DNA from: a virus | Lineage: Duplodnaviria; Caudoviricetes | DNA length: 64,000 nucleotides | Virus record (IMG/VR): IMGVR_UViG_3300022719_000071 | Coordinates: 1 to 64,000 of that record | Reading direction: 5' to 3' (one strand) | Part shown: positions 3,138 through 21,518 of the stretch, piece after piece | Layout: every line of letters starts with the position of its first letter | Numbering within the stretch: position 1 is the first letter of the stretch | Program-made: the position numbers and the translations under genes | The notes under the pieces: model-generated | The model's database searches: none | Told to the model about the DNA's origin: nothing | What the model saw: the letters and a program-made list of their open reading frames with translations, nothing else

Positions 3138-3869
3138 ATGGCAATTAGATTTATAGGGAATGGTGACAATGTGGCTAACAATTCAACCACGTTAACAAAC
3201 GGATTGAGTGCACTATCCATGGTTGCTTGGATAAAAAGCGATGTAACCGGTACCGACAAGGGTTGGTTAATCATGGGTGACCCTTCAGATCAAGATCGTT
3301 TAAACTCTATGCGCTACGACAATATCGGAGCGGTCACTGGTAACAACAACTGTCTTAAAGGAGGCATACTCCTTAGTCCGGGTAATATTGAGCATTCAGC
3401 GGAAACCATCGCCAACATTCAAACCACCAACTGGCAGCATTGTGTGTTTCGTTGGAAAAGTGGTACTGATATCAATTGGATTATAGATGGAGTTGCAGTC
3501 AATGATGCTGGTGGAATCACTGGTGGCAACACGGGGACCATTACCGGACAGACAAAAATCATCGTTGGTCTAGGGCCAAAAGATAACTCTGGTAGCAATT
3601 CCTGGAATGGAATAGTTGGTGAGATTCGTGTGTATAACAAGTACCTGAGTCTGAGTGAAGCACAGACCATGCACGCTTGTCCGGGAACAGACGGAATTCT
3701 TGATGGTTTGATTTACCACTATCAATTTGAAGAAGGTGGAGAAGGGGAGAATGTTCCAGCAACATCTGGGATCATCAAGGGTGAAAGCGCTAACAAAGTT
3801 GATTTGACAAGAATCGTCGTGGGACCAACGTGGGATGGCAGTATCATTGGGTCTAGAGCAATCAGGTAA
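3138..3869 (+). CDS. LamG/concanavalin-A-like lectin domain virion protein
   Basis: WQHCVFRW...IIDG...WNGIVGEIRVYNKYLS; paralogue of the upstream gene (shared TMHACxG motif). Confidence 0.75.
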   Translation: MAIRFIGNGDNVANNSTTLTNGLSALSMVAWIKSDVTGTDKGWLIMGDPSDQDRLNSMRYDNIGAVTGNNNCLKGGILLSPGNIEHSAETIANIQTTNWQHCVFRWKSGTDINWIIDGVAVNDAGGITGGNTGTITGQTKIIVGLGPKDNSGSNSWNGIVGEIRVYNKYLSLSEAQTMHACPGTDGILDGLIYHYQFEEGGEGENVPATSGIIKGESANKVDLTRIVVGPTWDGSIIGSRAIR

Positions 3870-3877
3870 ATACGAGC

Positions 3878-4498
3878 ATGGCTAACGCAATTAAGAAAAC
3901 TGCTGATTCCAATGGACTCTTCGAGTACGTAGAAAGCATCAACACGCCTGATTTCCCTGACACGGATTGGGAATTCGATCCAGATGTTTCTGGCGTTGAC
4001 GGAGTTGCACGAAAGTATTGGAAATACGATGGCACTAACGTTGTCGTTGAGATGTCCACGGAAGAGAAGAATGCTGTAGACGCAGCGTTGGCGGAAGCAT
4101 CAGCCACGACCAACACCGAGGGACACTACAGCTTCCTGCATTGGGGAGCAGCCAAGAAGACGTGGTTGCGCATGGGACTCGTAATGCCATCGAATATGAT
4201 GCCGGTCATCATGACGAATGATTGTGTTGTAACGGGATTTACATATGTCTGCTACACCGATAATTCGGATTGTGATATTGAAATTTACAAGAACGCAGTG
4301 TTGGAATACACTTGGGAAATTCGTAACAAGCGGCTTGCATACAAGTCCGATGAACTTTCCGCAGTGACATTTACTGCTGGGGATAGAATTTCAGTTCGAT
4401 TGGTTTCTGCTGGAAAATCTCCCTATTACCCATTGTTTACCTTTTTTTATCGTTACACAACACATGCTACAGGTGAGGGCGGATTAGCCTCGATGTAA
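3878..4498 (+). CDS. Hypothetical virion-associated protein
   Basis: 206-aa ORF in the structural operon. Confidence 0.6.
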   Translation: MANAIKKTADSNGLFEYVESINTPDFPDTDWEFDPDVSGVDGVARKYWKYDGTNVVVEMSTEEKNAVDAALAEASATTNTEGHYSFLHWGAAKKTWLRMGLVMPSNMMPVIMTNDCVVTGFTYVCYTDNSDCDIEIYKNAVLEYTWEIRNKRLAYKSDELSAVTFTAGDRISVRLVSAGKSPYYPLFTFFYRYTTHATGEGGLASM

Positions 4499-4510
4499 GA
4501 GAGAACAAAT

Positions 4511-5449
4511 ATGTCTATTTTCAGAGTTAGAAATGCATCAGGATCAGAAGGCACATGGGCTGGAGAAACGCTAGCTGATGGTGAGACTTTTGATATTATC
4601 GGTGAAAATAATTTACAGGTATGGAGGGGAGATGGGGATGTCATGCTCTCCGTGGCTCAAGGCAACCTGATTGTCAACAATGGTTCCGAGGATATCTTAA
4701 ATGTCACTGATGCTTGGCGTTACTTGAGTGGTGACACTTTACCTAAGTCCAAACTTGACAACACTAAGGTGGCTGTTCACTCTTCACCTAAGCCAGATAT
4801 CTCTGGCATTACCACATACGCTGTATGGACAGGTGCTGGTGACGATCCAGCAACCGGTGACATAGGTGAGGGAGACTTACTCCACTTCGAGTCTGAAGTT
4901 GGTGTTGCTGAAAAAATAATCGATGTGCATTTTAGCCCCGTACACGGTCGTATTTGGTTGCACGAGGGATATGTTAAGTTCAATGGTGCTGGTATTGGGG
5001 ACAACATGTCTGCTGAAGTTATCGCAACAGCTACTCCATTACAGCAATCTGTAGCGCTGGATTTGGTAGTCACAGACAATTGGATCACTTTCGCTCCCGG
5101 TGGACCAGGAACAGGAACACACGGTTTTGCAGACCCAACCAAGATTTCTTTGGTGGGACGTACATTCTCCAAGGATGGGGATTGGGATTACGATGGTGTG
5201 GATCTGACACCCAATTTCGCTGGTAATGGTGAATACAAGATTTCTGACATCGATAGAATCGCTCACCGTTTCATCAATAAAATTCCTTGTTATGATACGG
5301 CTAGCAACTACTTCACGATGTCATCAGATGAGACCTCAGAGTTGCCAGCGAACTACTTCCTACGAGTGAAGCAAAATAACGTATCAAATACGGTATGGCA
5401 TGCCTCGATTATCATAGAGATTTATCGTCAAAGGACGATGGTTCCGTAA
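4511..5449 (+). CDS. Hypothetical virion-associated protein
   Basis: 312-aa ORF with RBS-like GAGAG, last gene of the + strand structural run. Confidence 0.6.
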   Translation: MSIFRVRNASGSEGTWAGETLADGETFDIIGENNLQVWRGDGDVMLSVAQGNLIVNNGSEDILNVTDAWRYLSGDTLPKSKLDNTKVAVHSSPKPDISGITTYAVWTGAGDDPATGDIGEGDLLHFESEVGVAEKIIDVHFSPVHGRIWLHEGYVKFNGAGIGDNMSAEVIATATPLQQSVALDLVVTDNWITFAPGGPGTGTHGFADPTKISLVGRTFSKDGDWDYDGVDLTPNFAGNGEYKISDIDRIAHRFINKIPCYDTASNYFTMSSDETSELPANYFLRVKQNNVSNTVWHASIIIEIYRQRTMVP

Positions 5450-7619: not shown

Positions 7620-8402
7620 TTAGTTCAGAGGGAGAAGATCCCGTCGCTCCATAAGTAGCTTTCCAAGCATGTTGAGACCTTCCTTATTGGCGTCAACACC
7701 CCAATAGGTGTCACCCCAAGGTGCATACTCCACTAGGTAGTCCATGTGTGTATCTAGGAGTAATTGTGCAGCACGAGTTCCAGGGGCAAACTTGTATGCC
7801 AATGCTCGTCGCATAACGTCGTCCTTGCGACGATCCCAATCCCTATAACATGTAATCTGACGACCACGCTTCTTCGCTATGCCTGGGGTTGGTGCCTCTC
7901 GTACGTAATCTTGTTCTGATTCCAAGGGGCTCTTCATTGCTTGATAGTAATGTTCGGTGGTAGACCACGTGATACCGTCATCGTCCGTGAACTGATACCC
8001 GGTAGCAAAGTTAGACAGGAACCGTGATTGAGGGTTATCTTTTTTCTCGAAGAACAGCCAATTGGATACCCAGACTTCTGGTAGCTTCTTTTCGGCTTGT
8101 TCGATCATATTGGCGGTGCCTTTGCCACCCGGGAAAGCGAACAGGGCATCTGGTCTAGATTCGTTAAGCATTTGATGGTTGCGGATGTGTCCAGCACCAC
8201 GACCATGGGTTTTCCAATCTGCCGGAAAGACACGCACAGGAATTCCCATTTCTTCGGCCCATAGACCAGAAATGGTATCTGCGCCCTTGGCTGCTCCGTG
8301 GATAAGCTCGGTGATTGGGCGATTTTTGTAAAGACGGTTCAGGCGGGAAACGATAAATTCCACGTCATCAAAATCCCTTCCGCCACAGACTAATAACTTC
8401 AT
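7620..8402 (-). CDS. SLOG (YspA/DUF2493-like) domain fused to NADAR (YbiA-like) domain
   Basis: N-term LLVCGGRDF..LIHGAAKGAD..PADW..GRGAGHIRN..FPGGKGTANM (SLOG); C-term FLSNF..TTEHYYQAMK..W...M..ALAYKF..L.LL.T..L.E..DTYWG..GLNMLGKLLM (NADAR). Start trimmed to MKLLVC. Confidence 0.85.
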   Translation of the reverse strand: MKLLVCGGRDFDDVEFIVSRLNRLYKNRPITELIHGAAKGADTISGLWAEEMGIPVRVFPADWKTHGRGAGHIRNHQMLNESRPDALFAFPGGKGTANMIEQAEKKLPEVWVSNWLFFEKKDNPQSRFLSNFATGYQFTDDDGITWSTTEHYYQAMKSPLESEQDYVREAPTPGIAKKRGRQITCYRDWDRRKDDVMRRALAYKFAPGTRAAQLLLDTHMDYLVEYAPWGDTYWGVDANKEGLNMLGKLLMERRDLLPLN

Positions 8403-8499
8403 GATCGGAAGATAACTCAGAATGGGTCGGTTGTCCAGACTATCCAAGTGGTGTAAATACTCAAGTGCACCGTACTTACGTATTGCATAGGATGAATTC

Positions 8500-8730
8500 A
8501 TGCCGATTTGGAAAATAACAGCGTTGGTGGCCGTGTCTCTTTTGTTAGAAGGTTGCGTTCCGTTTTCGACTTTGGATAAAAGCACATTGCCTTTAATCTT
8601 TTCACTTGCTGCTGCTATTGGAGCAGGGTATGGGGCTTTGCGAGATCACTGTGAGGATAGGTGTGCTAGGAAGGCAGAAAATCTTGAGCGGCAAGTAAAA
8701 ACACATGTTGCGATGTATCACCCGGAATAA
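8500..8730 (+). CDS. Small membrane/lipoprotein in lysis region
   Basis: Signal peptide ending in LLEGC lipobox plus a second hydrophobic segment. Confidence 0.45.
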   Translation: MPIWKITALVAVSLLLEGCVPFSTLDKSTLPLIFSLAAAIGAGYGALRDHCEDRCARKAENLERQVKTHVAMYHPE

Positions 8731-8746
8731 GATGGTAGGAGACAGG

Positions 8747-9052
8747 ATGACTGAAATATCGTTTAGCATAGAATGGTCGGTTTGGGTTCCTATTTTGATT
8801 TCTGTGGTCTCTCTGTACTTGACTGTAAGAAGCATGCAAAAACGTGCTAACAGAGAAAAGGCTGAAGACGTTGAAGCAAAAATCGATAAGGCTCATACGG
8901 CACTAAAAGAATGTGAAGAAAATTTGCGTGCGTGTGGCCGTGAGAAGGATGAACTACGTCGTGATAAACTTGTACTGTTGGAACATATCGCTCGCTTAAC
9001 TAAATCGAATAGTAATAGTGGGAACCCTAGTGGCTCTGAAACTCCAGCCTAA
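8747..9052 (+). CDS. Single-TM coiled-coil protein (lysis region, possibly holin-like)
   Basis: N-terminal TM WVPILISVVSLYL followed by coiled coil. Confidence 0.5.
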   Translation: MTEISFSIEWSVWVPILISVVSLYLTVRSMQKRANREKAEDVEAKIDKAHTALKECEENLRACGREKDELRRDKLVLLEHIARLTKSNSNSGNPSGSETPA

Positions 9053-9082
9053 ATACTGGTTAAATATTAAACGAGGTATACC

Positions 9083-9619
9083 ATGCCATTCTTTCTACTA
9101 AAGGGTCTGTCTTTTCTTCCTTTTGGTGGGATTTTAAAAAACCCCAAGATCCTGTTTGCTCTTATTCTGGTGGTTGTTTTGGCCGTGGTGTACTTCAAAT
9201 GGAAGGGTGCCATCGAGGATCGCATTGCTAATGAGATTTTCACTGAGCAAGCACAGCAGCACATTGAGAATCAGAAGAAAGAGTTGGAGAGAATTCAGAA
9301 ACTATCCGTCGAAAGTCAACGTGCTGTGAGGGAAGCTCAAGAGCGTAGAGAAAAGCTACTACGTGAAGTAGAGCAAGCTCGTAGTGCCACCAGGAATGTA
9401 GATCCCGACCGTGATGGTGAAGTATCTCCGGTACTAAGAGATACCCTGGATTTTATTCATTCCAGACATCACGCACAAAGCCCTCAGCCACCAGCACAGC
9501 GCTCGTTGACCCAGAGGGCTGGTGCTGCCCTTGAGTCGGGTACGAAAGCCGTACAGGGCGCTGTGAAGGCGACTGGCAATGCTGCCATCGACGCTTGGAA
9601 GAAAGCGAGGGGACAATGA
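9083..9619 (+). CDS. Putative inner-membrane spanin (Rz-like)
   Basis: N-terminal TM then long helical region; stop overlaps the start of a lipoprotein (ATGA). Confidence 0.6.
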   Translation: MPFFLLKGLSFLPFGGILKNPKILFALILVVVLAVVYFKWKGAIEDRIANEIFTEQAQQHIENQKKELERIQKLSVESQRAVREAQERREKLLREVEQARSATRNVDPDRDGEVSPVLRDTLDFIHSRHHAQSPQPPAQRSLTQRAGAALESGTKAVQGAVKATGNAAIDAWKKARGQ

Positions 9620-9897
9620 GAATACTAGCGGTTGTTTTTATGGCATTGGTTTTGAGTGCTTGTGGTAGTAACAAGGTTCTGGTTACTGAGAAGACGCATA
9701 TTGTGGTCATGCCAGATGAAGGTTTGTGGCAGTGCCCGGATGTACCAAAGCCTCCGGTCGGTGAGTATACCCAAGCTGAAGTTGCTGACTATATTCTACA
9801 GTTGTATTCGGCTCATCAGCAATGCTGGAAGTCTATCGAGGATGTGAAGAGATATCTGGAACAGGCGGCTGAAATTACGGAGCGAGTACAGAAATGA
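9616..9897 (+). CDS. Putative outer-membrane spanin lipoprotein (Rz1-like)
   Basis: MRILAVVFMALVLSA-C lipobox, Pro-rich with two further Cys; overlaps the Rz-like gene. Confidence 0.65.
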   Translation: MRILAVVFMALVLSACGSNKVLVTEKTHIVVMPDEGLWQCPDVPKPPVGEYTQAEVADYILQLYSAHQQCWKSIEDVKRYLEQAAEITERVQK

Positions 9898-10154
9898 CTT
9901 CATTGCATTGGGTAATATTACTGATTTTGCTATTGACTGCATGCAAGCCGGTACCAGAAATCAAAGAACCGGACAAAAAACCGGCCATTGAACAGCCTGT
10001 TGTTCCAGAAAAGATTGAAAATTCAACATCTTCTGTAAAGGAAGAACCGGTCAAACAACCGGCTATAGATTGGGATTGTAGTGCCACCGATAACGATGTT
10101 ATCAACACATGGAAGCGTATTTTCAAGTGTAATGGTAAACTGGATGGAGAATGA
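9894..10154 (+). CDS. Small lipoprotein
   Basis: LLLTA-C lipobox. Confidence 0.55.
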   Translation: MTSLHWVILLILLLTACKPVPEIKEPDKKPAIEQPVVPEKIENSTSSVKEEPVKQPAIDWDCSATDNDVINTWKRIFKCNGKLDGE

Positions 10155-10393
10155 CGATGGATAGTTTAATTCTTGTGCTGTTAATTCTAATTTTTTTCTT
10201 CATTGCTACTGCGTATTTTGTATCGAACAATCGTGATGAACGTATTGAATATAAGATCAAAGCGTTGGAGAAAAAAATTAAAGAGTTAGGTGATATCGTA
10301 GAAGGGATTTCCCCGGGAGGGAAACTGATACCTGAAGGCAACGTTTCTTTTTGGAAAAGGGTGTCTCACTGTATCAAGCGTCTTTTCTTTTAA
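10151..10393 (+). CDS. Small membrane protein
   Basis: N-terminal TM; overlaps the previous stop. Confidence 0.5.
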   Translation: MTMDSLILVLLILIFFFIATAYFVSNNRDERIEYKIKALEKKIKELGDIVEGISPGGKLIPEGNVSFWKRVSHCIKRLFF

Positions 10394-10475
10394 TTTGTTT
10401 TTAAAGAATGGTGCAACCCATTTACTCGGATAAGTCGTCTTTAGACATTTATTCTAGTCTTAGAATCGAAATGGC

Positions 10476-10847
10476 TCACAACGCCTTCTTCAATCTCTTT
10501 TTATGTGTGATTGTTCGACCCATGCCAGCACGTCGTGTGATAGCACGTGCTTTACGCTGTCTCTTGCGTTGTGCTCGACGTTCCGAGCGGGACAGATGCG
10601 AGGGACCAGTACGACAGAAATATCCACGAGAGAGCTGCTGACGAGCATTAGCCATCAACTGCTGAATCATCTCAGGTGTGATTTCTTCTGGGTTCAGAAG
10701 ATCTTGACCAATTGTGAAATTCTGTGTGGTGTCTTCCGCAAGCTCGTCAGCCTGTTGTTCCATGGCTCGGCGCATCTTTTCCAGGTCTTTTGGATTTGGT
10801 AGATTATGCTTTGGCTCTTCCATTATCGTTGTGCCTTGTAAAACCAT
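10476..10847 (-). CDS. Hypothetical protein with basic C-terminus
   Basis: ORF track; Arg/Lys-rich tail. Confidence 0.5.
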   Translation of the reverse strand: MVLQGTTIMEEPKHNLPNPKDLEKMRRAMEQQADELAEDTTQNFTIGQDLLNPEEITPEMIQQLMANARQQLSRGYFCRTGPSHLSRSERRAQRKRQRKARAITRRAGMGRTITHKKRLKKAL

Positions 10848-11095
10848 ATCATCGAATGCAAACCGTAGCTCTTCAATCTTTGGTAAATTGAATAGTCGAT
10901 TTGATTAATCATGCTCAAAAGATATGTTGACTGGATTGCAAAATCAAGTCACTAAATTGAGCATAGAGTGCGGTGAATACAAACCCGTAGACCACGAGTC
11001 GTTCGAAGATCAAGATAGCGACGTAGGTCCAGTCAATCTTCATATCTTTGTGCGATATTAACGAATGGTTAGGAAAACTACTCAAGTTGTATATT

Positions 11096-11183
11096 CGGTG
11101 CGGGTGAGAGGACTCGAACCTCCACGGGATTTCTCCCAATAGCTTCTAAGGCTATCGTGGCTACCAAATTACACCACACCCGC
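11096..11183 (-). tRNA. tRNA-Leu(TAG)
   Basis: GCGGGTG/CACCCGC acceptor, ATAGC-CTTAGAA-GCTAT anticodon arm, long variable arm, GTTCGAGTC; ends CCG rather than CCA. Confidence 0.95.
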
Positions 11184-11342
11184 AAAGATGACGCTCTCAA
11201 AATCCGGTTCAATAGGAATTTATGGCTTATGTCATCAAAAATCATGCCAGTCCCTGACTGTAGCAGCGTCGTGTACCAAGGATACTGGCGGAACCATGAT
11301 ACCACTTTGACGGTGATACAGCGGCAACAAAGTTGCCTTTGT

Positions 11343-11425
11343 AGCGGGGGAAGGGATTCGAACCCTCGAAGCCTTTCGGCACAGGGTTATGAACCCTGCT
11401 ACTTTATCCTCTTGTATACCCCGCA
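11343..11425 (-). tRNA. tRNA with CAT anticodon and long variable arm (initiator-like)
   Basis: CAGGG-TTCATAA-CCCTG, variable hairpin GCC-GAAA-GGC, GAGGG-TTCGAAT-CCCTT; no encoded CCA. Confidence 0.85.
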
Positions 11426-11440
11426 TAGAGTACAAGTGTT

Positions 11441-11515
11441 TGGTAGCGGGGGCAGGATTCGAACCTGCGTTCTTCTGCTTATGAGGCAGACGAGTTTCCA
11501 CTTCTCCACCCCGCA
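11441..11515 (-). tRNA. tRNA-Met(CAT), fMet-like body
   Basis: TGCGGGG/CCCCGCT with 1:72 mismatch, TCTGC-CTCATAA-GCAGA, ends ACCA. Confidence 0.9.
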
Positions 11516-11521
11516 ATTGAG

Positions 11522-11597
11522 TGGTGGCTATGGAAGGAGTCGAACCTTCTACACGGACCTTATGAGGATCCTGCGTCACCACTTCCGCCTCATAGCC
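11522..11597 (-). tRNA. tRNA-Met/Ile2(CAT)
   Basis: GGCTATG/CATAGCC-ACCA, GGATC-CTCATAA-GGTCC. Confidence 0.9.
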
Positions 11598-11636
11598 AAA
11601 TCGTAGTTCTATTTATAGTGCTTCTGACTCGACAAG

Positions 11637-12110
11637 TCAAGGTTTACTAGGAACGTCATCCAATTCCCGAAGCAATCTTCTCGCACGACGGATCGCTTCT
11701 GGTGAAGATTTGAACGTTATACCAAGCTGCGCAATCTCTTCTCTCAGATCCTCAAGGGTACGCATCGTTCTCAAATATTGTCTCTTTTTGTAACGAATAA
11801 CTTCGGCTCTCTCCATCAATCGTTGTGATACAGAGAGGTTTTGAGCTAAATCATGGAAAGCTCTTCTTCGCTGCGTTGGTGTTATGTATGGTTCTCCGTT
11901 CATCTCACACCATACCCGGTCGATAACTCTTTCCGGTACTATGTGACCATTGCGGTCGTGGTCTATGATGTGATCCCACAAACCCTTGATGGTATTGAAA
12001 TGAACCGATTCGTATGGACTTTCCAATAGATCACAGCACAGACATTCCCAGCCGTCGCCGGTGCCTATGATATACAAGTCCGAATCTTTTCCCTTTCGGC
12101 AATAGCTCAC
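11637..12110 (-). CDS. Hypothetical protein
   Basis: 157-aa ORF overlapping the upstream stop. Confidence 0.55.
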   Translation of the reverse strand: MSYCRKGKDSDLYIIGTGDGWECLCCDLLESPYESVHFNTIKGLWDHIIDHDRNGHIVPERVIDRVWCEMNGEPYITPTQRRRAFHDLAQNLSVSQRLMERAEVIRYKKRQYLRTMRTLEDLREEIAQLGITFKSSPEAIRRARRLLRELDDVPSKP

Positions 12111-12412
12111 GATTTGTTAAAACGCAAGTACATCTGTGGTGTCCGCCTGTTCAACTCCACCAGCGCCTTGCGACCCTCCGGTGACATGTCTTCCAGTTCT
12201 TCACGGGTCATGGGCTTAGGGATTGCATCCCCCTCGTTCAGTTTTTCGAGCACCCAATGACCGATTGCCATCGCCAGTTCATCAGTTGGATTGATGCAGG
12301 ATAAGGCATTGATCCACATGTGATTGGAATTCAGTTGTTCCATCACGTCCTCTACAGTAGTTACCTCGAACTTCTGATTGTCGCTCTCGAATTTGATTAT
12401 GGTTGGCATCAA
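12107..12412 (-). CDS. Hypothetical protein
   Basis: 101-aa ORF. Confidence 0.55.
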   Translation of the reverse strand: MMPTIIKFESDNQKFEVTTVEDVMEQLNSNHMWINALSCINPTDELAMAIGHWVLEKLNEGDAIPKPMTREELEDMSPEGRKALVELNRRTPQMYLRFNKS

Positions 12413-12441
12413 TGTTTTCCCGTATGGAGCCTCAGTGGGCC

Positions 12442-13626
12442 TTACAAGCCCACTGAAGCATTCTCCAATAGCTTTTCACGGCTTGCCTTGCAACCACTAC
12501 GCTCCCACAGGATACGTAGCGTACGCATGGTTTCGCCGACCTTTGGACCCGGTTTCATGCCCAGGTCGAGTAGATCCTGTCCACGCACCGGGAATACCGG
12601 AGCTTCCCACATCTTCAGTGCTGCCACCAAATCGAAGTCTCCGAAGAACCGGGCGAATTCCTCGACGTGCTCACGCACGACGTGCTCCTTGACAATCTGA
12701 CGCTGGCACCAATTTAGGTCAAGGTTCACGAAGTCCTCACCATGCTCCTTGATCATCTGGGTCAAAGCAAGAAGCATGGTGGACTCCACCTTCGACAGCT
12801 TCCAGTTGGTGACCACATCCTGAGCATGCTTGATGTTTCCGTCCAGCAGACCAGCCAGAATCGTTACCGGCTTGGCACCCATGGAGTTAGCGATCCTGGA
12901 AAGTTCCTCGCCATCTCCCGTGATCATCAACGGAAGACCAACGGCGAACAGTACACCAGTCTGTTTCATGTCTTCCATCAGGAAGAGAAACGTTGGCGGC
13001 GGGACAACCAGGATTTTCTGCATCTCCATCCAGATACGCTCGCCAGAGATGCCCCTGAGACCTTCCACGTTCCGTTTGATGGCTTCCATGGTGAACGGAT
13101 CACCATCGACATGCAGGCGACCACAGAACCGAAAGTACCGCAGGATACGCAGGTAGTCTTCCTTGATGCGCTCGTCGGCATCACCCACGAACCGGACATG
13201 ATTGTCATCCAGATCGCTCTGACCGTTAAAGAAGTCATGCACGTTGCCATCCATGTCCAAGAACATGGCATTGATGGTCAAGTCACGTCGCTCCGCATCC
13301 TTCTGCCAGTCGTCAGTGAACACGACCTTGGTATGACGACCATCGGTCTCGGTATCGATGCGCAGGGTAGTGATCTCGAACGGCTCACCGTCCAGCACAG
13401 CGGTTACGGTGCCATGTTGAAGACCAGTCTCCACGACCGTGACACCAGCAGCACGCAAGATGTCCATGACATCAACCGGTAGCAAGGTAGTCGCAAGGTC
13501 GAAGTCCTTGGGGGTCTCTCCCAGCAGGAGGTCACGCACAGCGCCGCCAGCGACCCGGACATTGTTCTTACCCAGAATATCGGCCAGCGTGTGGACTTGA
13601 CTTGGAATGTGTTGCTTGAGGTTCAT
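12442..13626 (-). CDS. cca: CCA-adding enzyme (class II tRNA nucleotidyltransferase)
   Basis: GGAVRDLLLG..KDFDLAT (DxD), EITTLR, ERRDLTINAM, EDYLRILRYFRF, ISGERIWME. Confidence 0.95.
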   Translation of the reverse strand: MNLKQHIPSQVHTLADILGKNNVRVAGGAVRDLLLGETPKDFDLATTLLPVDVMDILRAAGVTVVETGLQHGTVTAVLDGEPFEITTLRIDTETDGRHTKVVFTDDWQKDAERRDLTINAMFLDMDGNVHDFFNGQSDLDDNHVRFVGDADERIKEDYLRILRYFRFCGRLHVDGDPFTMEAIKRNVEGLRGISGERIWMEMQKILVVPPPTFLFLMEDMKQTGVLFAVGLPLMITGDGEELSRIANSMGAKPVTILAGLLDGNIKHAQDVVTNWKLSKVESTMLLALTQMIKEHGEDFVNLDLNWCQRQIVKEHVVREHVEEFARFFGDFDLVAALKMWEAPVFPVRGQDLLDLGMKPGPKVGETMRTLRILWERSGCKASREKLLENASVGL

Positions 13627-14099: not shown

Positions 14100-15269
14100 T
14101 TATGAAATCTTCGCCTTCATGGTCACCAGAATGTCCTTCCAGTCACCGCCCAGCTTGTAAATCTGGCTGGCATGCTTCATCATGCGAAGCGAAAGCTCCT
14201 GCCACTCGGTGGCCTTAGACTCGACGAACTCCATCAGTTCGGCAGCCTGGACCGGAGTCAAACCCTCGGCCTCGTGCATCGGACCCAGAAAAACCTGCTT
14301 GATGCGGACCAGCCGATCACGGATGGTCTTGAGCGTAAGGTCCAGGTACAGGGACCGGGACATCAGAGCCTTGAAGTGCGGGCTCATCTTCGATTCGGCG
14401 GCGATCTTCTCCTGGAAGTCAATGTTGGTGATGAAGATCACGGAGCCACTGAACTCGAACTTGTTCGGCACCTGATCATCCTTCACGTCGTCCTCGCTGG
14501 TGATGTCCGGGTCGTACACCCAGGACGACATCTTGCGCCAGGAGATGATGCGCTCGTCGGTGCTGTCCAGAGCGGACTTCAGCAGGTTCAGAGCGTCCTC
14601 GTCCCGGAAGATACCGTCGCAGTCATCCAGGACCACCACACCACCGTCCTTCATCTTGTACAGAGCGTTATAAAGACCCGGAGCCGTGCAGGCACCCTTC
14701 ACCATGTCGTATGCCAGACCATTGGAAGCGTGAGCACGCTTCAAAGCCTTGTCGATGTCCCAGGTCTTGCCGATGCCCGGAGCGCCGAAGATAATCATGC
14801 TGGGCACGAAGCCACTGATGACACCCTCGACCATGCGGTTCATGATGGAGAAACGCTTGGCAATGCGAGTGGAGATCTGCTCCTCGGTCTCGATCTTGCC
14901 GCCGATGCTTCCAACCAGACCCGCCTCGACCTTGGCAGCCGGGTACAGGCGACCCGACACCCGGTCACGAACGAAGTTCTCGGTGACGAACGGGCGGGTG
15001 CCGTCGTCCTCGGTCTCGACCTTGGGCACAGAGCCGTTGGCCAGGAACGCATCGTAGACGCTACGGACCTTGCTGGTCACCTTGGGGGAAAAGGTCTTGT
15101 CCTCGCCCTCGCCCTTCTGAACGGCACCGAAAGCGTGGGAGACAAAAGCCTGCGACACGTCGAACATCTGAGCAAGCTCAGCCTGGACACCACGGCGGGT
15201 GTGATAGTCCTCGGCACCTTTGATGTGATTGACGATGTTGACAAACTCGTTGGCGTTCATGCGGGTCAT
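14100..15269 (-). CDS. AAA+ family P-loop ATPase with N-terminal HTH-like region
   Basis: Walker A IFGAPGIGKT, Walker B VVVLDDCD, sensor VIFITN, ALMSR arginine finger. Confidence 0.85.
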   Translation of the reverse strand: MTRMNANEFVNIVNHIKGAEDYHTRRGVQAELAQMFDVSQAFVSHAFGAVQKGEGEDKTFSPKVTSKVRSVYDAFLANGSVPKVETEDDGTRPFVTENFVRDRVSGRLYPAAKVEAGLVGSIGGKIETEEQISTRIAKRFSIMNRMVEGVISGFVPSMIIFGAPGIGKTWDIDKALKRAHASNGLAYDMVKGACTAPGLYNALYKMKDGGVVVLDDCDGIFRDEDALNLLKSALDSTDERIISWRKMSSWVYDPDITSEDDVKDDQVPNKFEFSGSVIFITNIDFQEKIAAESKMSPHFKALMSRSLYLDLTLKTIRDRLVRIKQVFLGPMHEAEGLTPVQAAELMEFVESKATEWQELSLRMMKHASQIYKLGGDWKDILVTMKAKIS

Positions 15270-15354: not shown

Positions 15355-15821
15355 GTCTCAACTACTAAGCGGCTGAGCACGCATTTCAACTAGAGCCAGA
15401 TTCTGCTACCCATGTGCTTCCGTTACGTCTCAACTACTAAGCGGCTGAGCACGCATTTCAACGTGATTCCCTGAACAGGCTGCTTGTTGGTAATTGTTGT
15501 CTCAACTACTAAGCGGCTGAGCACGCATTTCAACGCCAATAGAAGAATAGGCTCTCCCTCCTCATGTACGTCTCAACTACTAAGCGGCTGAGCACGCATT
15601 TCAACGAATAGTTGCGATCATCGAATCCATCACAAAGCGATGTCTCAACTACTAAGCGGCTGAGCACGCATTTCAACTCGTATGCTGGTCTTTCGCCTGG
15701 GCAACGTCGTCAAGTCTCAACTACTAAGCGGCTGAGCACGCATTTCAACCCTGGTTAGCTTAGATGTTGCCCCACCTGTAAATGTGTCTCAACTACTAAG
15801 CGGCTGAGCACGCATTTCAAC
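15355..15821 (-). CRISPR. CRISPR array: 7 identical 36-bp repeats, 6 spacers (35-36 bp)
   Basis: Repeat (minus) GTTGAAATGCGTGCTCAGCCGCTTAGTAGTTGAGAC at 15355, 15427, 15499, 15570, 15642, 15714, 15786; hairpin CUCAGC/GUUGAG then AC. Orientation inferred from the cas gene strand and the 3'-GAC end typical of type V handles. Confidence 0.99.
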
Positions 15822-15854
15822 GGCCAGGGTTACCGGCCCTTTTAATTCAATCAC

Positions 15855-17960
15855 TTACGCAACCTTTTGCGAGAGGTCACCAGAACCACGCTTCTTCTTG
15901 GTGGCCACCGACTCCTCCGACGAGCCTAACCCCTTGTTTTTTCTAGTGCGAGCACTGCCCGGGGTTTCTTTCACCACCGGAGCGCTCGCATCCTTTCGGC
16001 TGACTTTTTCCTCGATGAACTGTAGCCCTTCCCGGTCTGCATAATTTTTCAACCATTTGACCAGTTCGGAAGGAGAGACCGTTTTCTGAAGGTCTGTCAT
16101 TCTTCGGGTTCGGTAATCAACCTTTGGCACGATGATGGTTGACACTTGTTTACCGATCTTTACAGCTATATTTCGATAGATATCCGTACGCTGGCGTAGC
16201 TTCTTGGCATTGAGGTTGACTGCCCATGGATAGAGATGCGAGTACCGCTCATCGAATGCGAGTAGAACCGAGAAAGCCATTGCATCCTTCGTATTCATAC
16301 GAAGTTTGCTCTGAGCTTTCTCAGCGAGCAGAGCAATGGTCATGCCGTAGCTGCTGCCATAGCTTCCACTGTCTTCCTCGGAGTTTTGTCCCTTGAACTT
16401 CCCATGGCGATTCCTGGTAAAAGCACGCATTTCACGAAGGGTCGCCTGAAACACTTTCTTCTCGTCCTCCGTAGCGGTATCCGGGCACAAAATTTGGCAC
16501 CAAGCTCGATACGAGTGCCGCATCGCACTTCTAGTGCCAGCGGGTAAACCCTTCGGAAGAGCATCACTCGGATCGTCAGTTCCACCAAGCTCGATTAGCA
16601 TCTGTCGGGCTCCGTCCACATGCGCCTTGATGTATCCCATTATCCGAACAGACTGCTCCATACCATTCTGGATATTGGAGGGAATCTCTTCGTATCCAGT
16701 ATTGCCATTGATATTCCACTCGCAACACTTGATATTACCTGAAGGAAGCACTTCCCAGGTAGGAGTGATATGCGCAGTGTTTCCGTTAGCGCACTTGTTC
16801 TTGAAAATAAGACGCTTCATGGTGACATACAGATTTCCTTCTTTCTTTAGCCCCATCTTGCGTCGAACGTAGTTGACTTCTCGAACCTCGTCGTCCAAAT
16901 CATCAGGAGCTAATGAGCGATGCATAACGAACGGAACTTCGTACCATCCATTCTTGCCATTGCGAATGCTTGCGATGAAGATGTCATCCAATCTCTTCCA
17001 ATTTGGAAGACCAAATCGCTCCAAATCTTTTGGTGTAATTGGACGGATTCTAAATCGGGGGTTTGATCCATTGAGGATGGTTCCCACGCTTTTCGGGACA
17101 TCGTTTTGGCTGAGAATAGTGGTTAAGCTTCCCTCACCATTCCAAGTCTGGAGAGAACAAATGTTTCCGGGTCGGCTTCCGTCACGGTTTCTGTAGCGAA
17201 ACCGCATTTCGATATCGCTGTAGTAGGGAGCCATCTGAGCAGCTTTCCTCGACTGCTTAAACTCTTCTTCGACACGCAGATAATTTCCGAACCATAGACC
17301 GCCGCCTTTTTTCTTGCCAGCAAATCCCGGACGGCGATTGCGGACATTCTTGATGGTAGCATTAATGAGATTATCAATTTCCTTGAGCCTGTCTGTGTTC
17401 TGCTCTCGAAGATCGGACGCTTCTGCCATCGCCTCTTTGGACAAAGCGTCACGCTCCACCTTTAGAGCTTGGATCTTCTCCTTGATCTGGTCGATTAGGG
17501 GTTGGGCTTGCTCCACAGCGTCCGGATTGATCTTCTTGATGCGCTCGAAGTTCGCAGTCTGATTGATGGTGCGAATCTCATCGTAGTGCTCGGAGATCTT
17601 GCGATTCTGTTCCTTGACCCTTCGCTGAATCGGACCCTCGGTGATTTCTCGATACCTAATCACCAGCGGCTTCACGGCATCACACAGCATGTTGAAGTAT
17701 TCGTGTGCCGCTCGCATCTCGTCGTCCGGTGAGTTGTTGGGGACACCGACAGAAATAGGATCTGAGAGGCACCCATACTTAACTACTTCGTTACGGAATC
17801 GGGGGAAATCTTCCAATCGAAGTCCAGCAGCGACGAACTCATCGGGATGACTATGAGCGAGCTTGGCAAGAGCCTTCCGAGCAGAATTGACCGATTTCTT
17901 ATTATCACTGGTCAATTTCTCAGCGGTCTTCTGAATAGTTTCTACCTTCTTCTTGTCCAT
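15855..17960 (-). CDS. cas12m: Cas12m (type V-M/V-U1)-like effector, predicted nuclease-dead and C-terminally truncated
   Basis: VVKYG N-term, GGGLWFGNYLRVE, TWNGEGSL, WYEVPFVMHRSL, RRKMG..LYVT, RTDIYRNIA, VSPSELVKWLKNYADREG all match recalled Cas12m motifs; adjacent to the array; RuvC-I TAHITPTW and RuvC-II IIVPKVD lack the acidic residue. Confidence 0.8.
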   Translation of the reverse strand: MDKKKVETIQKTAEKLTSDNKKSVNSARKALAKLAHSHPDEFVAAGLRLEDFPRFRNEVVKYGCLSDPISVGVPNNSPDDEMRAAHEYFNMLCDAVKPLVIRYREITEGPIQRRVKEQNRKISEHYDEIRTINQTANFERIKKINPDAVEQAQPLIDQIKEKIQALKVERDALSKEAMAEASDLREQNTDRLKEIDNLINATIKNVRNRRPGFAGKKKGGGLWFGNYLRVEEEFKQSRKAAQMAPYYSDIEMRFRYRNRDGSRPGNICSLQTWNGEGSLTTILSQNDVPKSVGTILNGSNPRFRIRPITPKDLERFGLPNWKRLDDIFIASIRNGKNGWYEVPFVMHRSLAPDDLDDEVREVNYVRRKMGLKKEGNLYVTMKRLIFKNKCANGNTAHITPTWEVLPSGNIKCCEWNINGNTGYEEIPSNIQNGMEQSVRIMGYIKAHVDGARQMLIELGGTDDPSDALPKGLPAGTRSAMRHSYRAWCQILCPDTATEDEKKVFQATLREMRAFTRNRHGKFKGQNSEEDSGSYGSSYGMTIALLAEKAQSKLRMNTKDAMAFSVLLAFDERYSHLYPWAVNLNAKKLRQRTDIYRNIAVKIGKQVSTIIVPKVDYRTRRMTDLQKTVSPSELVKWLKNYADREGLQFIEEKVSRKDASAPVVKETPGSARTRKNKGLGSSEESVATKKKRGSGDLSQKVA

Positions 17961-18023
17961 TTTAGTCTCCCGTATCTTAGTAGGTATCCGGCGTGTGTAA
18001 GTGTATACTATTTCCGAAAGAAG

Positions 18024-20039
18024 TCAAAATCTTTCAGTACCACTAGGCGAAACAAATCGTTCGTCGGAATTCCTGTTCTGTTTCCCTTTCAGCTTCTTAG
18101 CTTTTCTCTTAGCGGATGGATCTTTCACATTTGTGGTTCGAGTTCTCATCATCCTTCGAATGATCTCATCTCCTCGTTGTTGAAGGGGACGAACAATTTT
18201 GTCGAGTTGGTTCAGGCTTCCCTGATTAGTTCTCGACTCGAATAGTAAGAGGCCACTATCAAGTTTTTCAGTAACAGAAAAACCAGCCAGTCGTATCTCG
18301 CTCGGGTCCAAGCCGCCATGTGTCCATTCGGGTTGAATAGGAGGACTAATAGGCTTCTTTTTCATTTCTCGATTTGCTTTCATAGTCCGGACTGCGAATT
18401 CTCGAAGCCACTTTATGGCCTTTGGCATTTGAAGAAGACCACCAGACAATCCACCACCCAACGCATGTTGAGCACACTGATTGAAGACTTTCTCATCGAT
18501 GAACTCATCATCAGAGTCGATGATGCCGCTCTTCATCGCACTGTCTAAAGCTGCCAGGAAGCTTTCTTTAATTGCCTTCTTATCACTTCCGAACAATTCA
18601 TCTTCTGCTTGGGTCAAAGTTCGATCAGTTCCGTCGCCAAAATCAAGCTTAACCGGTCTAAACAAATCCTCTGCCGCCAAGAGTCCGGACAATGCCACAT
18701 TAACACGATCTGCCACGTGTTCACGAACCTGTTCATCATCAGCATGCTCTTGGAGATTCTGAAAATACGTCACATATGCGATGTCATGCTTTTGTTCGTC
18801 CCTTCGGAGCATACGACCAATCGTTTGGATCGTTCTGGTGGTACTAGGACTAGGTGCGTGGTCATGTACCCGGCTTGCCGGGGGCCAATCCGTCCCCTCT
18901 CGCATCAAATTACAGGCAATGATTACATCAAAATCTGTTTCCCCGTCCTGCTCATACTTCTCCTTGTCAGCACGAAGCATAGCCTTGTTTTCGATCTTAG
19001 TTTCCTCCGTAACCAAGTCCAAACAACGAATACCGTGCTTCCCTAGTTCAGAGATCAAATTGGAGACCCACGAATCGTTCCTCTTTCTGAATCTCTTATT
19101 CCTAGCGGGTACGCAAACGATGTGTTTCTGCTTCGCTTCGGAAAGGATGATGTCGATTAGGATATCGAACGGATCTTCATCGTAACCAGTGCAATCATAA
19201 CGAAATTCAGAAATGTTCAGCCATTCCCAATGATCCTCGAACTCACGTTCATAGGTTTCAAACTTCCTGGATGCTTTTTCCAAGAACATCGGTCGTCCAT
19301 CACCACGAAAATGGGTTGCTGAAATGACAGATAATCCACTGTCGTCTAGTTTGAGTAAATCTTCACATACATCACCTAGCTGTGTACCTTCCTTCTCTAA
19401 GCGAGCTAGTTCTTTTTCATCCAGTTCCTCATCTTCACCAACAACACAAGATATATGATGAGCTTCATCGACTGCTAGCCATAAATTAGTTAAGGCGTTG
19501 CGCTTCTCTTCATTGGTCATATTGCGATAGGCTAGAACTAGAGAAGAATATGTGGAAATGGCAATTCTGCCGTCCATGGTGTTCGTAATGGGCTGTAGCA
19601 ACCATCTCTTCAGACCATCAACTACAGAATTCCTATGGTAACTGTCCTCTACACCACGGAAGTCGAATTCCGGAACAATACGAAATTTACAAATCGAACC
19701 GTCCTTTCGTTGAATATCAGCTATCTTGAATCCTTCTCCGATATGCTGTTGTGGTACCACAATCAGACTTTTCTTACCGACCTGAGCATAATGAAAGGCA
19801 CTAGCCTTGATGATTTCAGTTTTTCCAGATCCGGTGGGTGAAATCAGTTTGGAAAATCTGTTCCCTGTAAGGCAAACCACCGCATCATCCTGCCATGCAA
19901 AATCCCTGTTAAAGATCTTGGTTTTCGACTGTTTGACTGATGCCGTGTCTGATAATTCTCTGATCTTATGACCACGATCACCAACCAAAGCTGGTGGCAA
20001 AATCCTACCGGGAATAGATAGTCTAGCTATGGTGCTCAT
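18024..20039 (-). CDS. SF2 DEAD/DEAH-box helicase, YeeB/ResIII-like
   Basis: SPTGSGKT, VDEAHH, SATHFRGD, IIACNLMREGTDWP, IQTIGRMLR; start trimmed to MSTIARL (ATGA overlap with the upstream stop). Confidence 0.9.
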   Translation of the reverse strand: MSTIARLSIPGRILPPALVGDRGHKIRELSDTASVKQSKTKIFNRDFAWQDDAVVCLTGNRFSKLISPTGSGKTEIIKASAFHYAQVGKKSLIVVPQQHIGEGFKIADIQRKDGSICKFRIVPEFDFRGVEDSYHRNSVVDGLKRWLLQPITNTMDGRIAISTYSSLVLAYRNMTNEEKRNALTNLWLAVDEAHHISCVVGEDEELDEKELARLEKEGTQLGDVCEDLLKLDDSGLSVISATHFRGDGRPMFLEKASRKFETYEREFEDHWEWLNISEFRYDCTGYDEDPFDILIDIILSEAKQKHIVCVPARNKRFRKRNDSWVSNLISELGKHGIRCLDLVTEETKIENKAMLRADKEKYEQDGETDFDVIIACNLMREGTDWPPASRVHDHAPSPSTTRTIQTIGRMLRRDEQKHDIAYVTYFQNLQEHADDEQVREHVADRVNVALSGLLAAEDLFRPVKLDFGDGTDRTLTQAEDELFGSDKKAIKESFLAALDSAMKSGIIDSDDEFIDEKVFNQCAQHALGGGLSGGLLQMPKAIKWLREFAVRTMKANREMKKKPISPPIQPEWTHGGLDPSEIRLAGFSVTEKLDSGLLLFESRTNQGSLNQLDKIVRPLQQRGDEIIRRMMRTRTTNVKDPSAKRKAKKLKGKQNRNSDERFVSPSGTERF

Positions 20040-20650
20040 CGAGATCTCCAGAAGAAAAAGGTAATCATCTGTGTCTGGTTGACTTTCCCTGGGAGGTATG
20101 CATCGTATTGACCGAACTTTATATGTTCCCAAGACCGTGTTGCGGTACTGAATTCGAAACGATCCAAGATCCTACTTACGAATACATCATAGGGAATTTT
20201 TTTGGTTGGACTTCTCGGATTATCCATGCAGTAATTTGCACACACTAGGGTGTTCGGCCCAACCGAATCCAACGTCGCTGTTAACAGTGTAGAAGCAACT
20301 GGACTAATTTGGTCAAGCTGACTCATAGTGTCTAGATAGACAAGACCACCATTGGTACACGGATTATACCGTCGTACAATATCTGTCCATTCTCCTAAGT
20401 ACGTTTCGATTCCAGGAAACAAAGTTTTACAAGCCTGAACTTTTTCAGCGTCTCGATTGACTCCATGAAATTGTGCCTTCTTTAGAAACCCTTGTTCTTC
20501 TAGAGTTTGTAATTCGAACGAATTGTCATCCATCAGAGTCCAATATTGCTCTTCGGGAGATAGTACCCGCCGTCCCGTCAAATGGCTCCATACCTCAATG
20601 TTTTTGAGATGAGCCTTTTGCTTCCTATCATTTCGATAGTCGGGTTTCAC
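20036..20650 (-). CDS. Hypothetical protein, possible SAM-methyltransferase-like Rossmann fold
   Basis: GTG start after AGGA and its own promoter; FHGVNRD..., LVYLD strand pattern; translationally coupled to the helicase. Confidence 0.6.
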   Translation of the reverse strand: MKPDYRNDRKQKAHLKNIEVWSHLTGRRVLSPEEQYWTLMDDNSFELQTLEEQGFLKKAQFHGVNRDAEKVQACKTLFPGIETYLGEWTDIVRRYNPCTNGGLVYLDTMSQLDQISPVASTLLTATLDSVGPNTLVCANYCMDNPRSPTKKIPYDVFVSRILDRFEFSTATRSWEHIKFGQYDAYLPGKVNQTQMITFFFWRSR

Positions 20651-20773
20651 GGATTTCCTGCGTAGTAAAGTCAATATACTAGTAATGTAACGTTCGTCTA
20701 TTATCGTTGTCAAGAGAAAGAACAGAAATTTCCTCAAAATGTGGGGAGGGGCCACCACCCCTCCCCACATTTG

Positions 20774-21109
20774 TTATGCAGCCTGTCGCTGGGCGATCAT
20801 CTGCTCCCTGGCAGCTTCCTTCGCTTGCATACGCATCTGCATCATCATGCGTGCCTGCTCCTGAAGATTCATAAGCATACTCAGGTTCTTCCAACCATAA
20901 CTATTATTCCATTCTTCCGGACGAAGACTAGGCTTTCTCCAAAGCTTGTGCTGACGAATGCGCTTGCTGAGTTCCTTGTACTCCTTGCGCCAGCCATCAC
21001 GTTGCTCCAGATACTGTTCCTTGCCTTCGAAATCGAAGATGAAGTGATACTTGGTCTTAGGGCCGTCATCGGTCCAATCGGTCGTCTTAGTCATTTCATA
21101 GATAAACAT
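20774..21109 (-). CDS. Hypothetical protein
   Basis: Start MFIYEM after AAGGAG. Confidence 0.6.
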   Translation of the reverse strand: MFIYEMTKTTDWTDDGPKTKYHFIFDFEGKEQYLEQRDGWRKEYKELSKRIRQHKLWRKPSLRPEEWNNSYGWKNLSMLMNLQEQARMMMQMRMQAKEAAREQMIAQRQAA

Positions 21110-21518
21110 GGTAATTCTCCTTAACTGATGTTGCCCATAGTGGGCATAATTAAACTCAAATTGGGTATGTTGAGTTACAATTAAGGACCACGAATGTAAT
21201 ACCACTACGTCATGGTTCAATCCTCCTCGTATTTGGCTTTCAATTCGGGGTGAGACCGTAATCATCCAGGGTTTGATCATAAACATTCTACGTCATCTGA
21301 TTACCCTCTTTATTGAGACGTGCGAATTTCCACGATAAGAGATCTTATCGTGCGTGAAAATAAAACGGGAGGGTTTGTGGTTCTATATACCGAACTTAAT
21401 GAAGCCGTAGTCGCCTTCAGCCATCCACTCTTTGATACCCAGAACCCAAGAAGAATCACGGGTGATAATCTCATTATCCCCACCAGAGATGTCGGACCAT
21501 CCTTCATTGCAAATTGGC

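Follow-up and report, generated by a model that had tools for sequence, protein, structure and literature searches.

Genes for a helicase and a methyltransferase-fold protein beside a dead Cas12m-like gene point to a helicase-assisted type V CRISPR variant in giant phages

How could a CRISPR effector that has lost its nuclease defeat a target by binding alone? Type IV-A systems answer with the helicase DinG, and a locus in the IMG/VR virus record IMGVR_UViG_3300022719_000071 (Duplodnaviria; Caudoviricetes) raises the same question for type V. In the 64,000-nucleotide (nt) stretch that was analyzed, positions 1 to 64,000 of that record (hereafter, the window), the minus strand carries a gene for a small protein, a helicase gene, a Cas12m-like gene with a destroyed RuvC site, and a CRISPR array, in this order. 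The window holds 17 transfer RNA (tRNA) genes together with phage-type proteins, and therefore the 360,469 bp genome is that of a giant phage. The arrangement suggests that type V CRISPR has a helicase-assisted variant not described before; our literature search found no published description of a small protein, a helicase, and a dead Cas12m arranged in this way.

The small gene (P0002; 20036..20650) encodes 204 amino acids (aa) from a GTG start at 20650, a choice backed by the N-termini of its homologs. Its stop overlaps the ATG of the 671-aa helicase (P0001; 18024..20039) at 20039 as ATGA, and exactly 63 nt separate the helicase TGA from the ATG of the 701-aa Cas12m-like gene (P0003; 15855..17960). 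Both the ATGA coupling and the 63-nt, same-strand spacing had been read in an initial annotation of this locus, and the coordinates of the open reading frames (ORFs) bear them out. All three ORFs are intact under code 11, and the helicase ends in TGA (a suppressor tRNA had suggested recoding of TAG). The array (15355..15840) lies directly 3′ of the Cas12m-like gene, consists of 7 identical 36-nt repeats and 6 spacers of 35–36 nt, and is the sole array in the 360-kb genome. Between the three genes, the minus strand showed no terminator-like site, and a promoter-like sequence upstream of the small gene, TTGACA-18-TACATT (20684..20713, minus strand; consensus match 10/12), is a candidate operon promoter. 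The promoter that the initial annotation had placed before the Cas gene, TTGACT-16-TACACT in the helicase–Cas spacer (18000..18027, minus strand), is present with a 9/12 match, but the region holds 12 promoter-like sites compared with 8.1 ± 3.1 in shuffles, so that the count is not above chance, for either site.

Is the effector a Cas12m, and is it dead? P0003 matches the PADLOC profile Cas12u1 (V-U1, now Cas12m) with an E-value of 1.7e-28, and an 8-sequence profile of P0003 searched against the PDB matched Cas12m 23vw_A (E 2e-18), UnCas12m4a (1.2e-5), and Cas12m2 8hio (1.5e-4). By sequence similarity, P0003 is thus placed in the Cas12m (V-U1) family, and the adjacent array has a conserved repeat: related repeats, ending in GAGAC, CAGAC, or GGAAC and containing a GCC...GGC stem, follow the Cas gene in the homologous loci L009, L016, L076, L078, and L079. 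Studied Cas12m proteins are generally described as retaining a RuvC-like domain with its acidic residues and a zinc-finger/RuvC-III segment. P0003, which departs from type V-M in both of these features, aligns with Cas12m such that the RuvC-I Asp of IDLGW is replaced by Thr in ITPTW and the RuvC-II LEE by VPK; the protein stops shortly past the ADREG motif, and the zinc-finger/RuvC-III part is absent. None of the eight clade members conserves an acidic residue in the RuvC columns. The label "dead Cas12m-like" is justified because the residues of RuvC-I and RuvC-II are replaced and the RuvC-III/zinc-finger part is gone.

Is the helicase tied to such effectors elsewhere? A metagenome scan with a helicase profile gave 60 loci, which were scored with custom hidden Markov models; most of the related contigs are short. 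Cas linkage was found in 13 distinct metagenomic lineages (the window, L002, L003, L006, L008, L009, L012, L014, L016, L019, L076, L078, and L079). Upstream of every Cas homolog with visible upstream DNA, the helicase is the immediate neighbor on the same strand, never with another gene between, and the spacing over the 13 lineages ranges from a 4-nt overlap to 96 nt. The order small protein, helicase, Cas holds throughout, the small protein being either a separate gene or fused to the helicase. The initial annotation had stated that Cas homologs without the helicase would speak against the link; instead, the helicase is directly upstream in all 13 lineages. Relatives of the Cas protein are few, and their identity to P0003 goes from 53% down to 21%. 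The genes upstream of the closer ones encode a 198–219-aa protein and a 655–679-aa helicase. Helicase relatives at 34–39% identity are again followed by 629–743-aa proteins, which are Cas12m-like and 21–28% identical to P0003, with arrays after them where the contig reaches that far. RuvC residues are missing from the effectors throughout the Cas-linked clade. As a trial of the linkage, L079 was selected on nothing but the grouping of its small protein with the Cas-linked ones, and it carries, as predicted, the helicase, a Cas-like gene (E 6.5e-106), and a 3-repeat array.

A protein comparison of 11 Cas-module loci, covering 12–14 kb of flanks in the window and extending elsewhere to the contig ends, found only the trio in common, save for the close pairs window/L006 and L002/L076. 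The called flanks of L079 (NAMPT, NUDIX, and DNA ligase) differ from those of the other loci. Searches from the Cas side returned few additions: annotated phage records held no Cas homolog and two helicase matches only, an IMG/VR scan with the Cas profile gave only L009, which was already known, and a word-indexed search with the Cas alignment gave nothing past the first four homologs.

Several of these loci have features of their own. The array after the Cas homolog of L002 (10950-11822) has 18 units with a period of ~48 nt and spacers of only ~17–20 nt; its repeats, of ~30 nt, vary between copies with compensating changes in a hairpin. On the 458-kb contig L076, each of the small, helicase, and Cas genes (8305-12958) is broken into two parts, for which assembly indels are the probable cause; the module is followed by a 15-repeat array, and 8 kb upstream of it there is a TnpB fragment (Cas12f1-like_TNB). 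On the 196-kb contig L079, an IS200/IS605 TnpA and TnpB pair (3201-4608) lies 4.4 kb upstream of the Cas-linked module.

Do the three genes share a history? In a tree of 43 helicases, the Cas-linked sequences form one clade with a Shimodaira–Hasegawa-like approximate likelihood-ratio support of 99; its stem is 1.02 substitutions per site long. The clade comprises 10 Cas-linked sequences, 1 from a cut contig, and 1 from a Cas-less, rearranged locus (L010). When the Cas label was shuffled over the tree, 0 of 500 shuffles gave as few changes, and the Cas, helicase, and small-protein trees are congruent at every well-supported node. These trees show the three genes to have diverged jointly, as a unit.

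What kind of helicase is it? P0001 matches Pfam ResIII (8.9e-8) and Helicase_C (1.7e-5) with modest scores and carries the superfamily 2 (SF2; DEAH-type) motifs in order on two RecA-like domains: GSGKT (residues 70–74), VDEAHH (190–195), THFRGD (242–247), REGTDWP (380–386), and QTIGR (405–409). The motifs quoted in the initial annotation are all among them, and motifs I, II, III, V, and VI (GSGKT, DEAHH, SATHFRGD, REGTDW, and QTIGRxxR) show no variation across an alignment of 16 sequences. Because of this invariance among the 16 relatives, P0001 is expected to be an active ATPase. Beyond the superfamily, its affinity is generic. The AlphaFold model (predicted local distance difference test score, pLDDT, 73.8) matches SF2 cores (RecQ, UvrB, Lhr, and SauUSI) at template-modeling (TM) scores of 0.3–0.4 and no specific family, and NCBIfam and PADLOC gave short or sub-threshold matches only, to Cas3, PbeA, UvrB, and Hef. 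As for Cas3, the profile TIGR01587 cas3_core scored 14.2 bits against a cut-off of 102, the Cas3g match was limited to residues 45–89, and the adjoining domain is a methyltransferase fold rather than the HD nuclease domain that is fused or adjacent in Cas3. As for DinG, the typeIV_DinG profile did not match P0001 and matched the relative P0016 in the Walker A region only (E 0.0083); DinG/XPD chains are missing from the 50 best helicase fold matches, with which a distant kinship is compatible. The YeeB-like label of the initial annotation found no support in Pfam, NCBIfam, PADLOC, and fold searches, which yielded only generic SF2 or ResIII/Helicase_C matches.

The C-terminal domain of the helicase (~residues 460–671) is fast-evolving, and BLAST similarity over these ~200 residues was seen only in Cas-linked relatives. 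We considered the domain as a clean marker of Cas linkage, a use that is weakened by its score in L079 (see below). In a separate observation, Lys/Arg-rich tails end both the helicase (window 18024-18140) and the Cas12m-like protein (15855-15990), as they do in the L006 homologs.

And what is the small protein? The 204-aa sequence has no match in Pfam, PHROG, NCBIfam, PADLOC, or the PDB. Its AlphaFold model (pLDDT 86.7) was submitted to two independent structure searches (Foldseek and VIA), whose 50 best matches are all methyltransferases, with E-values of ~1e-7 and TM scores of 0.5–0.6; the top match, 4htf_A, has a Z score of 14.0 and a root-mean-square deviation of 3.4 over 175 aligned residues. 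The model thus assigns the protein a class I S-adenosylmethionine (SAM)-methyltransferase fold (seven-stranded, Rossmann-like), and the Rossmann fold guessed in the initial annotation was right. SAM binding is uncertain because the glycine-rich loop is missing (the loop after strand 1 reads LMDDNSFE, without Gly-x-Gly) and because, where strand 2 ends, the Cas-linked clade has Asn65 in place of the ribose-binding Asp, which is present in 77% of 137 wider relatives. These 137 representatives keep K10, Y36, W37, E46, Q60, G63, Asp/Asn65, Asp107, N139, and W174, with Asp107, at the end of strand 4, kept in 99%, and the family therefore has a conserved pocket. The cysteines C74, C98, and C141 of the Cas-linked small proteins were considered as 5-methylcytosine-type catalytic residues and dropped, since they are not conserved in the wider family.

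The small protein is homologous to residues 1–205 of three fused helicases, P0012, P0013, and P0016 (36% identity, E 2e-42), which are 828–868 aa long and carry it as an N-terminal domain. Where the genes are unfused, they abut or share 1 or 4 nt (window, L002, L006, L008, L014, L078, and L079). From the fusion in three relatives and the overlap or abutment elsewhere, we infer that the two proteins work together, with the small protein as an obligatory partner of the helicase.

Could the helicase then supply what the dead effector lacks? The explanation that we favor, at somewhat better than an even chance, is that a nuclease-dead Cas12m lineage captured, a single time, a Cas-independent phage module of helicase and methylase-fold protein, and that the result is now one operon with an array, a variant type V-M system in which the helicase is recruited to the R-loop as an accessory. 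The complex of Cas12m and CRISPR RNA (crRNA) would bind the target DNA and form an R-loop, leaving the DNA uncut. The helicase and its methyltransferase-fold subunit would be drawn to this R-loop, possibly via the fast-evolving C-terminal domain, and would spend ATP to translocate or unwind, so that passive binding would become a stronger interference against a competing phage, a plasmid, or a host locus. Such a function would resemble that of CasDinG in type IV-A, of Cas3 in type I, or of Cas3 in the reported Cas12m-Cas3 hybrid. An added helicase activity is plausible because the helicase motifs are invariant while the effector is without RuvC residues. The initial annotation had likewise proposed that a nuclease-dead guide complex recruits a translocase as type IV-A does; the linkage to a nuclease-dead type V effector holds in 13 lineages, whereas recruitment by such a mechanism would still have to be supposed. 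After the capture, the Cas-independent module would have been maintained with the Cas12m lineage as one operon.

Does a complex of the two proteins look likely? Modeling it had been suggested in the initial annotation, and the prediction for Cas residues 1–665 with the helicase C-terminal domain scored 0.34, compared with 0.00 for the best of 3 controls. The mark used was reached by 58 of 80 solved complexes and by 2 of 110 mismatched pairs; scores of 0.60 or less came from only 7 of those 80 and from both of the passing mismatches. Agreement between runs is at least 27% of contacts, and the partner pLDDT is at least 53. At this low partner confidence, the predicted complex gives weak support to recruitment.

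Its weakness is one of several points that weigh against recruitment. Of the 43 helicases in the tree, 31 are without Cas or array. The small-protein family comprises 305 representative clusters at E 1e-3 or better, and ~290 of them score far below the Cas-linked group; among the 150 listed of these 305 representatives, nearly all are stand-alone proteins of ~200 aa. Since most loci of the wider family hold the pair without Cas, the pair is probably older than its association with Cas12m, and since it is common without Cas, it has a Cas-independent function, which may be its whole role here as well. A family of helicases mostly without arrays had been named at the outset as evidence against the link; this half applies, yet the Cas-linked helicases are one clade with congruent trees. 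That single origin means that the linkage is one evolutionary event kept by descent and not a convergence. An L010-like sub-lineage inside or beside the clade is without Cas. The C-terminal domain of the helicase is barely recognizable in the Cas-linked L079 (11 bits), and therefore it is not a clean marker of linkage. Finally, the promoter-like site ahead of the Cas gene would permit separate Cas expression.

These points favor the main alternative, which we consider unlikely but a serious contender: that the adjacency reflects descent only, the helicase and small protein being a common sort of phage gene pair that serves, for instance, in the modification of DNA or RNA, in replication, or in repair, beside which a Cas12m-plus-array cassette was inserted once without functional coupling. 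In addition, the pair has one copy in this genome, the Cas-linked one, and any Cas-independent job would fall to that copy; that the sole copy is the Cas-linked one also speaks for the captured module. Against this alternative, gene order, strand, and adjacency are kept in the 13 lineages despite identities of ~35% for the helicase and 21% for Cas and despite flanks replaced on either side. The turnover of accessory CRISPR cassettes in phages is usually fast, which also counts against it, and in L002 and L012, the helicase and Cas genes overlap or are at most 2 nt apart. The stem of the Cas-linked helicase clade is long, Cas-less relatives show no detectable C-terminal domain of this kind, and the three gene trees are congruent. 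Adjacency by descent is weakened by this evidence, yet it stays in contention because the Cas link has only one origin.

What does the pair do where there is no Cas gene? It occurs without Cas in giant-phage contigs as well, e.g., L077. In Cas-less loci, proteins made of ~55-aa tandem repeats flank the helicase, before or after it, and 1–3 paralogous copies are fused to it or follow it (L024:4398-6983, L055:6836-9415, L038:9202-11917, L042:4276-6625, and L001:7827-9682). In L024 and L055, they are fused to the helicase C-terminus, where the Cas gene follows in the Cas-linked clade. They are absent from that clade, and the genome studied here has none. The repeats match Pfam INT_rpt weakly, and the Atlas leads to HNH_repeat score <0.9, both below the trust levels of the tools; Pfam and PHROGs gave no trustworthy family names for the neighbors of Cas-less helicases. 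We regard as improbable, though worth stating, a broader reading in which the pair is a modular phage machine with a swappable targeting partner, tandem-repeat and possibly DNA-binding proteins in most phages and an RNA-guided dead Cas12m here, and would deliver an ATP-driven translocase, perhaps with a methyl mark, to programmable sites. If true, this would be a natural RNA-guided epigenetic or remodeling activity.

Some Cas-less loci differ in other ways. In L010 (5689-9477) and likewise at P0081, P0087, P0089, and P0090, the helicase comes first and then the small protein, followed by a 196-aa protein without a family match and by a 1.1-kb gene-poor stretch. In L056 (5-1016), a distant helicase relative is preceded by an interspaced repeat of 11 copies, and no Cas-like gene was detected there. 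In Tunturiibacter phage Tunturi_5, the helicase alone was found; its gp102, tried as a small-protein homolog, was rejected (E 14), and GenBank annotates its repeat proteins of the kind described above as "DNA helicase".

Could the pair instead serve the guide RNA? In this scenario, which we judge quite improbable, an RNA helicase and an RNA-modifying enzyme would act in crRNA maturation or in the loading or turnover of the ribonucleoprotein. RuvC is said to process precursor crRNA in Cas12m, as Wu and colleagues are reported to have described in 2022, and the residues of this processing site are lost here. RNA helicases exist among SF2 DEAH enzymes, and the structural matches of the small protein include the RNA methyltransferases NSUN4, Trm4, and RsmG-type enzymes among many others. 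On the other hand, most phages with this pair have it working without a CRISPR array, no sign of an RNA-binding domain was seen, and the fold matches, with Z scores tied within 1, cannot separate RNA methyltransferases from those of DNA or small molecules. Least probable of all is RNA-guided modification, in which the dead Cas12m delivers a helicase-driven methyltransferase-fold enzyme to loci and methylation is the output: the small protein is without a target-recognition domain of its own, keeps family-wide invariant polar residues where they classically occur (strand 2 ends in Asp/Asn, strand 3 is followed by Gly-Asp/Glu, and strand 4 ends in Asp), and has Cas-less relatives with faintly DNA-binding-like repeat proteins, in part at the position that Cas takes, but the repeat likeness is below the trust levels, and the small protein has the defects in the SAM site noted above.

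What surrounds the module in the window, and what might its spacers target? Just upstream, a 170-aa ORF (20774-21286, minus strand) matched no family; its counterpart at the same position in L006 is 70% identical, and the remaining Cas-linked loci lack the ORF. On the other side, directly downstream of the array, an AAA-type ATPase (14100-15269, minus strand) matches PHROG 1250 (E 1e-84, function unknown) and is not kept next to the module in other loci. The spacers had no target in the phage's own 360-kb genome or, with the whole array as the query, in the phage record collection, and three of them had no exact 24-nt match in IMG/VR. The public runs listed are 3 DNA metagenome runs from one study, 2 of which hold part or all of the stretch, and include no RNA run.

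If the favored explanation of a captured, R-loop-recruited helicase is true, CRISPR would have recruited a motor independently once more, and the helicase would be the first for class 2, other than Cas3, found in our literature search. Nuclease-poor CRISPR systems have acquired helicases repeatedly (PMC11656645). The module would then be a candidate for a new subtype or variant of type V that giant phages carry, and a compact natural scaffold, a ~700-aa dead Cas12 with its partners, for the programmable recruitment of a translocase or modifying enzyme. It would also give a first context to ~300 uncharacterized phage protein clusters.

How does the module compare with known systems? Type III restriction-modification (Mod with the ResIII-family Res) and the YeeA/YeeB/YeeC set share with it a methylase-like gene followed by a ResIII-type helicase, as well as the Pfam ResIII match. 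The small protein here, however, has only ~200 aa, without a target-recognition domain or a canonical SAM loop, and the helicase has no recognizable nuclease domain. The initial annotation had reported both the methylase and the nuclease partner of YeeB as absent; indeed, no YeeA-like or YeeC-like domain was found in the neighboring ORFs scanned here, but a helicase partner with a methyltransferase fold is present.

Type V-M, represented by Cas12m2 of Mycolicibacterium mucogenicum (PDB 8hio/8hhl) and by the Cas12m chains 23vw and 23vu, shares significant sequence similarity with P0003 and, like the module, has a compact single effector beside an array, is carried by mobile elements, and is expected to have no DNA-cutting capacity. 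Here, in contrast, the residues of RuvC-I and RuvC-II are replaced, the protein has no zinc-finger/RuvC-III tail, and there are always two extra upstream genes, neither of which is mentioned in PMC11656645, PMC12669027, or bioRxiv 10.64898/2026.09.14.751636. This variant is found in giant phages, whereas type V-M is found mainly in plasmids. According to a 2026 preprint, which is silent on any helicase partner, the first phage Cas12m is a stand-alone one in a myxophage.

A putative Cas12m-Cas3 class 1-2 hybrid has been proposed (Altae-Tran et al. 2023, PMC10910872), and it shares with the module a non-cutting Cas12m and an SF2 helicase that could add interference beyond binding. Its partner, however, is a type I-C-like Cas3 with an HD nuclease, whereas the helicase here matches Cas3 profiles near Walker A only, far below the cut-off, has no HD domain, and is partnered by a methyltransferase fold. 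The type I-C variant of huge phages, which has "a helicase protein instead of Cas3" (Al-Shayeb et al. 2020, PMC7162821), is likewise a giant-phage CRISPR system without a nuclease and with an unclassified helicase; its effector is of the Cascade type rather than Cas12m-like, and the two helicases are likened by description only.

Type IV-A with CasDinG combines a nuclease-free guide complex with a helicase, resides on mobile elements, and has no adaptation module. It differs in its class 1 multi-subunit effector and its XPD/DinG-family helicase, for which the module has a single Cas12m-like protein and an SF2 helicase without a DinG profile match, but in the likeness of the guide complex and its motor, it provides the functional model for the system proposed here.

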